DNA of 64,000 nucleotides from a virus. Every line of letters starts with the position of its first letter. Position 1 is the stretch's first letter. The position numbers and the translations under genes are program-made. This document shows, one piece after another, positions 29,878-35,817 of the stretch. A model generated the notes under the pieces. It was not told the origin of the DNA, searched no databases, and saw only the letters and a list, made by a program, of their open reading frames with translations. The stretch covers positions 6,123-70,122 of IMG/VR virus record IMGVR_UViG_3300002920_000062. One strand, given 5' to 3'.

Positions 29878-30278
29878 TATTTACCCCTAATATAGAATTA
29901 TTTATAGTGCTTCTAATAAGACACTATTTAAAGTTATTATGCAACTGGTTTTGTTGAATAATTAACTGACCAAAAAATATCCTTTAAAAGGTCCACCAAA
30001 AACACACTGGTTGTAGGGCAAGTTTGCATACCGATAACACTTTTCGCATACTTCACACTTCATTTCAACCGTCTTGTCAAAATCAATCTGATTTTTCTTG
30101 CTCATAATAACCTCACCAAACTGATAACCAAAAGGGGGGTTTAAACCCCCACACAATTACTAGCAATATACTTTCAAGATATTATGACTAACATTACACT
30201 ATCAAGTCTGTTAGCAAACTAGATAAGTCCAAGTTCTAAATGATATGAGTTTACCTCAATCACTAAGTTACATAGAAT

Positions 30279-32254: not shown

Positions 32255-33004
32255 TTATTTACTTGCTAATTTTGGACGATAATTTGGCCAGTTAAGAACT
32301 CCCAGAATATGAGCAATAGCCCTATATTTCTGTTCTCTATCTTCTAGACCTTTGAGACCTTTGTTAATAGGCTTGGTTACTGTGGCAGTATCACTATAGT
32401 CACTTACTCTAGGCTGTACCCTATTCTTCCAGAACCAGATAGCTACCTTGGCAGCAACATCTGGACGTTCAACTAATTCTGGATGTTCTTCTAAGGGAAG
32501 CCCTATTGCTTTGCCTGCTTTAGCATAGTTATCTCTGCCGGTTAGCTGAATAAATCCCCTGCCGCGATATTTGTATCCATCTCCGGGTTTTATGTTACCT
32601 AGCTCATTGGCTTTTTTGGGGTTGTGCTCTATATCATATCTTTTGAAGTATTCTTCATTGCCCAACTCTTCCATATACTGGAAATTTAATGTCTCGTGAG
32701 CACATTGTGCCAAAAACTGTGATAGCTGTCTACCTTTCATGCCCGCTGCTCTTGCTTGGTTTACTAAAGCTTTGCCAATCTTAGTGTCCAACAGCTTCAT
32801 CATTTTACGAACCTCAGAAGGATCAGCTTTAATCTTATTAGCATTAAGCTCTTGCTCTATTTGGTCCATACTTTTAATGTTTCCAGGGGCGTGTACTGCC
32901 TTGTAGGCTAGATTTCCTGTTGCTGCAAGAGCAAGAGCAGCCATAGTACCTTTTGTCCACTTAGAAAAATCTTCGTCTAGGGGTTCAAATTCATAACTTC
33001 GCAT
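32255..33004 (-). CDS. Glycoside hydrolase family 19 lysozyme/endolysin
   Basis: FLAQCAHET, YRGRGFIQLTGRDNY; likely start MRSYEF at 33004 after TAAATA. Confidence 0.92.
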   Translation of the reverse strand: MRSYEFEPLDEDFSKWTKGTMAALALAATGNLAYKAVHAPGNIKSMDQIEQELNANKIKADPSEVRKMMKLLDTKIGKALVNQARAAGMKGRQLSQFLAQCAHETLNFQYMEELGNEEYFKRYDIEHNPKKANELGNIKPGDGYKYRGRGFIQLTGRDNYAKAGKAIGLPLEEHPELVERPDVAAKVAIWFWKNRVQPRVSDYSDTATVTKPINKGLKGLEDREQKYRAIAHILGVLNWPNYRPKLASK

Positions 33005-33225
33005 AATATATTTATACAACCCGAATATAAAATAGAAAACCAAAATCCGTGGCGAGAAACCTGAACATTGTTCAGGAAAAATTCATGCGTAAACTGGCGC
33101 CCCCTATTATTTTTCTTCATGCTTTTTCCCATCATTGGACGAAAGGACGCATTGTAGGGGACATAAACTCTGGGGTAACTGCAACATTTTTCGTCACTTT
33201 AAAGTATATGCTAGTCACCAAAAAA

Positions 33226-33411: not shown

Positions 33412-33905
33412 GATTATCCTTTTATATTAAATTTGGTGAACGATATAGGTACTGCTCTTATTTACTTTTAAACTAAAGGACCTCTGTTCTTTGTTTCTCA
33501 GTAGTAATTACGATCTGCCTTCTCTACCATGTCAAAGTAGCGTTCTTATACTAGCGAACTAACTGGACATTAATTCTTTTCTTCTACTGCGACGTCTTTA
33601 TGAATTGTTTCGATAAATCCCGAGTCATGTTTTAGTAAGTAAGTTTCACCTACTACACCAATGATAGTTCCTACAGACTTCTTTCCCGTTTTTTCACAGA
33701 CGAAACAATAGGTCCGTTCACCAATTGAAAGCATAATAAGATTCCTTGTTAATAAAAGGTGCTTCCAAGAAGTACTAGCCCTCTGTCTCAACATATGTCG
33801 TGACAATACTTTTATACTATGGAAGCTTACATCATAATTATTATATTGTTTTTGGCTTCAATTTAAAGGAAGTTCTCTTGCCCATACTACAGAAACCTTA
33901 AGTCC

Positions 33906-33981
33906 TGGATGCCCCGCCTGGGCTCGAACCAGGAACCTTTTGATTCAAAGTCAAACATGCTGCCAATTGCACCACGGGGCA
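33906..33981 (-). tRNA. tRNA-Gln(TTG)
   Basis: TTTGA-CTTTGAA-TCAAA; CCA. Confidence 0.92.
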
Positions 33982-34251
33982 TTAAATTTTTGTATTATAC
34001 TCGGGAAGTTAAAATAGTTAAAGAGGCTAAAACAGACTTTCCCTGTAAAAGTTTCTAGCTTTTAAAAACTATCAGTAAGTGCGTTTCCAGATTGACAATC
34101 TGGTGCTGTTTTCATTGTTGATAGTTTATGTTAAACATGTTTTCTTATCCAAGACATTTGTTGCTTTTTTGGGTTTGTTCTTTTTGTGTTATTGACTTTT
34201 CTTTTTCAGAAAAAGTATATAATTGATTTTTCCCACAAGTCAAGTAATATT

Positions 34252-34484
34252 TGGAAATCACGCCTTGCCCAGCTTAAAGCCAGTAGTCCGTCTGTGCTAA
34301 TAGAACTCATCTATCAGCGGGAAGTAGTTTTTAGCTCTTCCCAACGGAGGTATCCGCGTGTCAGTCCACATTCACCTTCACACAGTGGAGTTCACCGTGC
34401 GCTAAGCTACCCTTTTTCTGATATTTCTATCAGACGCGCCTTTCGGGGCACCTAGTCTAGCTAGGGGGTCGATGGACTCAACCC
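34252..34484 (-). ncRNA. Unannotated ~230-nt multi-hairpin RNA at head of tRNA array
   Basis: GC-rich island with at least seven hairpins/helices; ends ..UUUCCA; no ORF in sense orientation. Confidence 0.6.
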
Positions 34485-34495
34485 ATTTATAATTT

Positions 34496-34526
34496 AAAAA
34501 CCCTGAAAATCTTTCGATTTTCAGGG
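34496..34526 (-). terminator. Intrinsic terminator (attenuator)
   Basis: CCCUGAAAAUC-GAAA-GAUUUUCAGGG-UUUUU. Confidence 0.85.
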
Positions 34527-34573
34527 ACTAATACAAACATATATTTCTATTTTCTATGTTTACATTAGTCCCC
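34523..34573 (-). promoter_or_regulatory. Antiterminator helix overlapping leader stop codon and terminator base
   Basis: GGGGACUAAUGUAAACAUA pairs with UAUGUUUGUAUUAGUCCCU (19 bp, 3 G-U). Confidence 0.75.
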
Positions 34574-34696
34574 GATATCCCATTCAAATATATTAATGAA
34601 ACTTGGGGTTCTTAGAGTATATATGCCCGCACGTAATACCAGAGTGGGCACTCTTGATTGTACGTGTTGTTTGCATATGTTCGTTATCATAGTCAT
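34565..34696 (-). CDS. Putative attenuator leader peptide (43 aa)
   Basis: MTMITNICKQHVQSRVPTLVLRAGIYTLRTPSFINIFEWDIGD*; ATG 6 nt after TAAATA (34703-34708). Confidence 0.6.
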   Translation of the reverse strand: MTMITNICKQHVQSRVPTLVLRAGIYTLRTPSFINIFEWDIGD

Positions 34697-34775
34697 ATAA
34701 CGTATTTAGTCCTGATATTCAAAGAGTATTTTTTAGCTGATTTTTTCAATTTTTATCTCAGCGTCTATATGTTTA

Positions 34776-34804
34776 ACTATATAACAATGTTTCTTATATG
34801 TCAA
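34776..34804 (-). promoter_or_regulatory. Sigma70-type promoter upstream of leader
   Basis: TTGACA-N17-TATAGT. Confidence 0.7.
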
Positions 34805-35167
34805 CTATTATTTTCACAGACCGGATGATTTACTATTGCAATCTTTTGCGTGTAGTAAAAATCAAGTTCCATCTATAATTCTAACAGGTGATAGCCCATC
34901 CTTCTAGAAACCAGAATCCTTACAAATACTGAATAAATATCTTGAATAAATTATATTCTATTTGTAAACTTCATCTTGAAGAACCCCGAATGCTAGGCGA
35001 AGCATTACCTCTTCGACATACTTGGGGGTCAGTTTTACTCCCCAGCTAGTGGTATGGGTATACTCGCTGCCGCGAGGATAAACAGTGCGAACCGCATTTC
35101 CTAGGTCAACAAGAGTATATGCTTCTTTCCGCCGATATAAATTTCGATACCCTTTGCAGTGGCCTTC

Positions 35168-35817
35168 TTACTGATACCACATGCTTTGATAACTGCCTGG
35201 TAGTCCATCTACTGTCTCCTTGTTAATAATCTCTTGCAGCCCCAAAATATTCCCAGCTTCTCTCAGTGATTCCCGCAAGACCAACTTTCTTTTGGCATCC
35301 TGTTCCTGCTTAATCAAGCTAGCAATACTAGCCATTTCAGCAAGAGCAACCGGAAAGGATAAGTCATTCATCAAAGCGTTTTCTACCCTAAAGAGACAAT
35401 AGCAGAGACCGCCACGGCATCAGTTTTTTCACCAAACACATTATATAGCCGATTGAGTCGCATAGTGGCCTGAGATACTGCATTTTCCGACCAAGCAGCA
35501 GACTGGCGATATTGTGCATTGAGCAACACCAAACGATCTGTTTCTGCTGGATAAAGTTTAAGAGCATCCCTCACAGTGAGCATACTGCCAGTTGACTTAG
35601 ATATTTTTTGTCCGTCTACTGTAACCATACCGTTATGCATCCAAATGCTTGCGTATTTGTTACCGCCGTGTGCGCAGTTACCTTGAGCAATTTCATATTC
35701 TTCGCCGGTCTTAGAAATCCAAGCCCATCCTTCTAGAGCTTCTTTGGCAAAAATAATAATTTGATCTACAGTCCATCCTTGCCAGATAGCCGTATCATAT
35801 ATTTCCTCTTGTGTCAT
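35168..35817 (-). pseudogene. cysS: Cysteinyl-tRNA synthetase C-terminal fragment, frameshifted and fused to unrelated N-terminus
   Basis: EIAQGNCAHG..WMHNGMVTVDGQKISKS..YRQ then VENALMNDLS (DALR-like) in the next frame. Confidence 0.8.

Follow-up and report, generated by a model that had tools for sequence, protein, structure and literature searches.

A putative leader-peptide transcription attenuator preceding phage tRNA genes

Known attenuators and the leader in the window

Leader-peptide attenuators are known from the enterobacteria, where they include trpL, hisL, leuL, thrL and pheL as well as the multivalent leaders of ilvGMEDA and thr. The locus described here lies on the minus strand of a 64,000-nucleotide stretch of DNA from a large uncultured phage (hereafter the window, meaning the whole stretch that was analysed). 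It resembles these attenuators in that a short promoter-proximal ORF is followed by an intrinsic terminator before the genes that would be regulated, and in that an alternative helix, with its 5' strand placed where the ORF ends, takes part of the 5' strand of the terminator. The spacing is also similar: the stop codon precedes the terminator by about 70 nt in the trp attenuator, and in the phage leaders 57-66 nt separate it from the point where the terminator stem ends (57-63 nt in L024, L025 and L026; coordinates give 66 nt for the window). Unlike the classical attenuators, the phage leaders have a longer ORF of 43-45 codons, share merely 3-5 nt between the two helices and contain no regulatory codon run, but instead 19-20 different amino acids and 31-36 different codons (codons counted in six leaders). 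Furthermore, the genes placed under their putative control encode a structured phage RNA and tRNAs rather than biosynthetic enzymes.

Leaders that respond to more general translation problems offer another comparison. According to its abstract, toiL, upstream of topAI-yjhQ in E. coli, senses several classes of ribosome-targeting antibiotics (PMC12121999), and the mef/mel leader is likewise summarized as controlling macrolide-inducible resistance by attenuation (PMC4335068). As far as these abstracts go, toiL and the antibiotic-responsive leaders are like the phage leader in that a short ORF reports varied translation trouble and in that stalling turns on downstream transcription, whereas the phage leader differs from toiL and mef/mel in being phage-borne, in preceding RNA genes and in combining an intrinsic terminator with an overlapping helix. 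There is also a functional likeness to the T-box riboswitches, in which the choice between terminator and antiterminator couples translation-related genes to tRNA status. However, the phage leader has no specifier loop or T-box sequence, and its sensor would be the ribosome rather than direct binding of a tRNA; the T-box covariance model gave no Rfam match at E-values up to 10 in 33500-35400.

To our knowledge, the regulation of phage tRNA genes is essentially undescribed, and our full-text literature searches did not return published reports of leader-peptide attenuation controlling phage tRNA genes. The role of phage tRNAs is itself debated, with codon compensation set against escape from tRNA-targeting defences (PMC10264068). 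We consider it likely that a conserved ribosome-mediated transcription attenuator of the leader-peptide type heads the phage tRNA region, and that failure of ribosomes to complete the leader ORF probably raises transcription where the array begins. From the arrangement and folding of the leaders we infer that translation controls termination, in which direction the switch works and what kind of signal it reads. If this interpretation is correct, decoding capacity would feed back on the translation-related RNAs that phages themselves encode, leader-peptide attenuation would extend past amino-acid operons and single-amino-acid signals, and two conserved RNAs, here called ncRNA-1 and ncRNA-2, would become stress-induced products.

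The promoter of the leader in the window is of the sigma-70 type (TTGACA-17-TATAGT, 34776-34804, a match at 11 of 12 positions) and is the joint best among 37 promoter-like sites in the 8 kb scanned. The 5' untranslated leader (34697-34769), in which an AGGA Shine-Dalgarno-like site is spaced 13 nt from the ATG, precedes the leader ORF (protein P0004, 34565-34696), which consists of 43 codons plus TAA. Its last two sense codons and the stop codon (34567-34565) lie within the 5' strand of the putative antiterminator helix (34555-34573), which begins with GGGG and forms 19 standard pairs, 34573-34555 with the 3' strand at 34541-34523. The last four bases of that 3' strand, CCCU (34526-34523), are also the first four bases of the stem of the intrinsic terminator (34496-34526), in which two 11-nt arms (34526-34516 and 34511-34501) enclose a GAAA loop before a U5 tract (T5 at 34500-34496). 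The whole element is compact, about 310 nt, and folds more stably than all of 200 shuffled sequences (z = -4.8). Promoter, ORF, helix and terminator were thus found on the minus strand exactly where a sequence-only reading had placed them, and counting confirmed the 20 amino acids and 34 codons that it had reported for the ORF, including four ATA codons and two each of AGA, CAA and GTA. A TAAATA element in the same leader, which that reading had taken for a late promoter, is on the other hand kept in the closest relative only.

Downstream of the terminator follow the structured RNA ncRNA-1 (34250-34491, minus strand), which has a consensus fold, a second sigma-70-like promoter (TTGACT-18-TATACT, 34214-34243, minus strand) and tRNA-Gln(TTG) (33906-33981, minus strand), the first downstream tRNA of the array. 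The source virus record has a length of 179 kb, is estimated to be about half complete and carries 16 tRNAs. Directly upstream of the leader promoter are the remains of a split cysteinyl-tRNA synthetase gene in two ORFs (35168-35817, minus strand), one covering the last part of the catalytic domain (PF01406 positions 223-300) and the other a piece of DALR_2, with the first ~220 catalytic residues absent.

Relatives and the leader reading frame

Together with the window, eight relatives from metagenomic phage contigs give nine distinct leaders: the window, L002, L003, L004/L017-20, L010-15, L016, L024, L025 and L026/27. Of these sequences, L010-L020 come from bog-lake samples. The viral contigs L002 and L003 were retrieved with the conserved stretch of the downstream RNA, as were L004, L005/8/9 and L007 from metagenomes. 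The leaders with peptides P0005 and P0006 were recovered with a profile of the L003 and L004 peptides, and those with P0007, P0008 and P0010 in a search of 1.84 billion representatives; the DNA around these later-found peptides (L010-16, L024-27) has the same architecture as the window. The nine leaders fall into two lineages without nucleotide similarity to each other across the ORF, the larger of which, that of L003, comprises seven leaders, with the window and L002 outside it.

Other searches were negative within their scope. The window leader had no match in the GenBank phage collection, the sole match of the L017 leader there was a tRNA, and the exact pattern of the window terminator was not found in viral contigs. 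Three extra ncRNA patterns recovered only L002 and L003 again, a scan of genome contigs gave nothing, and no homologs were recovered with the window and L002 peptides as queries. Neither the leader peptides nor a 64-residue ORF in L010 matched Pfam or PHROGs, and Rfam holds no family for the leader, ncRNA-1 or ncRNA-2. Within the tRNA region of the window itself, no further cassettes of promoter, mini-ORF and terminator were seen.

Promoter, ORF, helix, terminator and ncRNA follow one another in this order in the window, L002, L003 and L004, and all nine leaders have a promoter, an AGGA-like site, an ATG-initiated ORF of 43-45 codons and a terminator. The -10 box lies 17 nt from the TTGACA in every relative. 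The trp/his-type geometry proposed from the window alone is hence conserved across both lineages, with compensatory changes in the helix, and the codon-diverse ORF with an overlapping antiterminator and terminator, which the sequence-only reading had proposed to look for in related phages, recurs in eight of them. Two observations from this comparison count against the attenuator reading. First, L005 and L007 have an RNA of the same ncRNA family without an attenuator, their promoter leading straight into a different 5' segment and then the ncRNA, with no ORF and no terminator. Second, the purine run of the leaders is located 11-13 nt 5' of the ATG in six tabulated cases (and is visible in L024, L025 and L026 too), a spacing that is longer than the 5-10 nt of AGGA or GGAG in the genes of the window phage, yet conserved.

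Several features suggest that the ORF is a coding sequence. In the six leaders for which the sense strand was checked, the ORF frame alone is without stops. The ORFs of the window and L002 have diverged to 68 of 129 identical nucleotides and nine of 43 common residues (dN/dS about 1), yet start, length and stop are identical, and identity is about 88% in the helix, terminator and ncRNA next to them. In simulations of neutral drift, the frame stayed open in 12% of the runs from the window to L002 and in 19% of those from L003 to L004. Where lengths differ among four leaders of the larger lineage, they do so by whole codons. Within this lineage of seven, most pairs show a dN/dS between 0.15 and 0.6, third codon positions are changed disproportionately often, synonymous variants occur at 8 of 15 conserved residues, and the peptides have a common motif (Trp, Ile, Tyr-Asn-Arg-Asn-x-Pro-Thr, Asp-Gly-Gly-Thr) at codons 25-39 that is absent from the window and L002 leaders. 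The conservation of frame, length and stop, along with the coding-type substitutions, indicates that the leader ORF is very probably translated. Judged from the same comparisons, the peptide is under weak constraint in the larger lineage and seemingly under none in the window and L002, and the motif of the larger lineage hints that there the peptide itself may matter.

These patterns bear on two explanations in which the ORF has no role in termination. One is that a chance ORF happens to lie beside an ordinary terminator. A random 43-codon frame of this composition would be open in about 5-6% of cases, but its recurrence in nine sequences from two lineages without nucleotide similarity across the ORF makes coincidence extremely improbable. 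The other is that a protein or RNA antiterminator of the phage or its host binds the leader RNA, with the ORF irrelevant to control. Antitermination of this kind is well known in phages, as exemplified by lambda N and Q and by HK022 put, and the leader is highly structured. Binding of a factor would nevertheless leave unexplained both the coding signature and the conservation of ATG, frame, length and stop through saturated divergence, and we regard it as improbable.

The antiterminator and terminator helices

The base helix of the antiterminator is found in five compensated versions among the nine leaders, with no pair broken: two 19-bp forms, GGGGUAC/GUACCCC, GGGGUUG/CAACCCC and GGGACACA/UGUGUCCC. 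Pairs 1-3 are always G-C, and their C's also open the terminator stem, whereas pairs 4-7 are changed on both sides among the versions. In L002, an A-U pair of the window is replaced by G-C. The stop codon lies in the G-run strand or at most 15 nt after it in every leader, so that the position of the stop relative to the helix is conserved in the relatives along with the start and length of the ORF. An upstream GGACUAA was also considered, in an alignment inspected by eye, as another partner of the antiterminator 3' strand, and was rejected because it fails to follow the compensatory change in L002.

A G+C-rich stem with a U tract is situated between the ORF and the downstream genes in all nine leaders; the terminator is at the same place in all eight relatives, while stems and loops vary. 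The overlap with the antiterminator involves the base pairs of the terminator that adjoin the U tract. Because just 3-5 nt are exchanged, the terminator and antiterminator states are only 1-3.4 kcal/mol apart and thus nearly iso-energetic, and the long hairpin can keep its upper 15 bp when the terminator is fully formed. The small overlap and the near-equal energies mean that the switch may only modulate termination.

The effect of a ribosome was modelled by masking its footprint codon by codon and calculating pairing probabilities from partition functions, which describes equilibrium and not kinetics. When the A site is placed on the stop or on one of the final 6-9 codons, the base of the terminator is predicted to be paired with a probability of 0.9-1.0 in all nine leaders, in agreement with the sequence-only reading, in which a ribosome at the end of the ORF turns the terminator on. 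In five leaders, the predicted pairing of the terminator base is about 0 at any earlier position as well as without a ribosome, so that, unlike in the classical attenuators, read-through rather than super-attenuation is expected when the ORF is not translated. The remaining four (the window, L024, L025 and L026) give values of 0.3-0.7 without a ribosome and the lowest ones, 0-0.3, with a ribosome at codons ~25-36, where it covers an upstream C-rich segment able to hold the G-run. The terminator would in these four be least favoured by a stall within the ORF, which is a trp-like pattern.

The mechanism that we propose would thus operate as follows. Host RNA polymerase would start at the sigma-70 promoter and transcribe the leader ORF, whose final codons and stop are situated in a G-run able to pair with the C-run that constitutes the base of the terminator. 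A ribosome that reaches the end of the ORF would cover the G-run and leave the C-run free, so that the terminator could be completed and transcription would end at about 270 nt. With a ribosome that stalls or lags further upstream, the greatest sensitivity being predicted at codons ~25-36, the helix between G-run and C-run would form, as it may in several relatives also without any ribosome. The terminator would then lose its G-C base beside the U tract, and the polymerase could read through the weakened structure into ncRNA-1 and the first tRNA genes.

Alternatively, the ORF may be a stand-alone gene for a micro-protein, followed by a cluster of two hairpins that serves as its terminator, with incidental leakage into the ncRNA. 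The seven members of the larger lineage keep a peptide motif with synonymous variation, intrinsic terminators are known that consist of tandem hairpins (PMC8355165), and the compatibility of the upper 15 bp of the long hairpin with the full terminator agrees with such a cluster. Less easily explained in this way are the window and L002 peptides, only nine of 43 residues alike at a dN/dS of about 1 between flanks of about 88% identity, and the fact that the leader peptides match no protein family. Nor would a micro-protein gene account for a G-run/C-run overlap with the terminator base that has survived five compensated versions, for a stop codon that is always in or just after the G-run strand, or for an ncRNA without another conserved promoter. 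Taken together, these observations make a stand-alone gene unlikely.

We also considered the possibility that the terminator is set by a ligand- or condition-specific arrest peptide in the style of TnaC, SpeFL or SecM, in which case the codon diversity would be a by-product. The motif of the seven leaders is conserved at the protein level and falls exactly in the predicted sensitive stretch, at codons 25-39. However, it is missing in the window and L002 despite the same architecture, and the constraint on it is mild (dN/dS about 0.5). We know of no arrest motif that the leader peptides resemble, and we judge this explanation to be slightly less probable still than a micro-protein gene. We favor an attenuator in which progress of the ribosome through the ORF would decide between the two helices.

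Amino-acid sampling and the putative signal

The nine leader ORFs contain 20, 19, 20, 20, 19, 19, 19, 19 and 20 different amino acids; Cys is missing from five of them and His from one (L002), and the positions of Cys, His and Trp differ from leader to leader. Such diversity is uncommon. Windows of 43 residues in the proteins of this phage contain 20 amino acids in 0.7% of cases and at least 19 in 6%, random codons of the ORF's own composition give 1.4-2.8% and about 12%, respectively, and among other short ATG ORFs 1 of 112 has all 20. On the other hand, the seven related peptides have a common core that already fixes 12 residue types, and the diversity conditioned on this core gives p about 0.01-0.02 by Fisher's combination. 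The comparison with random 43-residue stretches that the sequence-only reading had asked for thus shows more diversity than chance would give, but the effect is modest, with p about 0.01. Broad codon sampling by the leaders is real, whereas selection for it is only moderately supported.

Because the ORFs sample 19-20 amino acids and 31-36 codons without runs, the signal is probably general rather than tied to one amino acid, and the most likely candidate is the overall capacity for decoding and translation, that is, the supply of charged tRNAs and the availability of ribosomes. More specifically, the leader might act as a pan-amino-acid gauge of charged-tRNA supply, which upon decoding failure would induce transcription of the ncRNA and of extra tRNAs in jumbo phages that have a complete tRNA set. 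We put this forward tentatively, as plausible but less likely than not. Such a gauge would also register tRNAs that are lost to host anticodon nucleases or because the phage itself shuts off its host, and, if it exists, the logic of attenuation would apply to decoding as a whole instead of to single amino acids.

The idea that a stall at any codon would be sensed, which goes back to the sequence-only reading, has modest support. In its favour are the 19-20 amino acids of all nine leaders, the shifting positions of Cys, His and Trp and the complete tRNA set behind the L003 leader; against it are the gaps for Cys and His, the modest p-values of 0.01-0.02 and the final codons. Because stalling at the final 6-9 codons is expected from the folds to promote termination, Glu38, Trp39 and Asp40 of the window leader would be outside the sensing range, and several of the residues that complete the set of 20 sit in such final, presumably termination-favouring codons. 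Furthermore, as there are no regulatory codon runs, a single hungry codon would have to suffice.

A match between the codons of the leader and the tRNAs of the phage had also been suggested. This was rejected, as 21 of the 43 codons in the window leader are read by phage tRNAs compared with 40% genome-wide, which is no enrichment. The converse, that amino acids absent from the leader correspond to tRNAs absent from the array, was rejected as well: the L002 leader has no His and its array contains a tRNA-His, and the window leader has all 20 amino acids and an array that covers 11. In the L003 phage, the array behind the leader comprises 41 tRNAs that cover all 20 amino acids. This array (L021/L022, G001:C1:40000-65500) includes two tRNAs with anticodon TCA, annotated as 'SeC' by ARAGORN, which are candidates for UGA-reading suppressor tRNAs.

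The RNAs and tRNA genes downstream

ncRNA-1 is about 230 nt long, with a long-range closing helix that encloses several hairpins and a nearly invariant 45-nt stretch. Its consensus fold has 49 pairs, 18 of them with compensatory changes, and the RNA itself gives z = -5.2. It was found in the window, L002, L003, L004, L005, L007 and L026, where it always heads a tRNA array on the same strand with up to 41 tRNAs, and it is still 80-89% identical between phages that have lost any match in the proteins encoded nearby. A conserved promoter between the terminator and ncRNA-1 was not found in the alignment of the window, L002, L003 and L004; a TATAAAT-like box that was considered for this role occurs in the window and L002 but not in L003 and L004, and was dismissed as unconserved. 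With no conserved promoter of its own in these four leaders, ncRNA-1 is, on present sequence comparisons, a product that depends on read-through of the terminator. The sequence GGAUACCUCC, which we take to be one base off the 3' tail of the 16S rRNA (the anti-Shine-Dalgarno sequence), is present in ncRNA-1 of the window (about 34340-34360, minus strand), L002, L003, L004 and L026 and is unconserved in L005 and L007.

In L010 and L025, the same leader is followed not by ncRNA-1 but by ncRNA-2, a conserved RNA of about 190 nt (L010:3200-3400 and L025:3200-3342, both plus strand). In L010, a very basic 64-residue ORF without a family comes next, and then tRNA-Tyr and tRNA-Lys. The presence of the same leader before a different RNA, which in L010 still heads tRNA genes, indicates that the leader is a portable module.

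How far the influence of the switch could reach is limited by other promoters and terminators. A TTGAC(T/A) promoter-like site after ncRNA-1, as at 34243-34214 in the window, is present at the same place in L002, L003, L004 and L026, and several perfect TTGACA-17-TATAAT promoters were seen in the L003 array, which has no further strong terminator. These promoters, behind ncRNA-1 and throughout the arrays, leave control of the whole array by the switch unsupported. The suggestions that the gated unit of the window extends to 22.7 kb and that the whole array stays off did therefore not hold: the promoter behind the ncRNA intervenes, the next minus-strand terminator after the leader is at 30150, and strong sigma-70 promoters recur within the arrays. 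A more restricted role seems to fit the sequence better, in which the switch would control the RNA at the head and add to the transcription of the first tRNA block, which in the window would end at the terminator at 30150 at most.

Two further observations concern the arrays themselves. In L022 (3900-12450, minus strand), four perfect TTGACA-17-TATAAT promoters and three with 11 of 12 matches are spread across the tRNA array, and one perfect promoter, in tandem with that of the leader, precedes it by about 80 nt. In the window, a 262-residue ORF with a Glyco_hydro_19 domain (chitinase class I or lysozyme-like) is located between tRNA genes of the array (32255-33043, minus strand).
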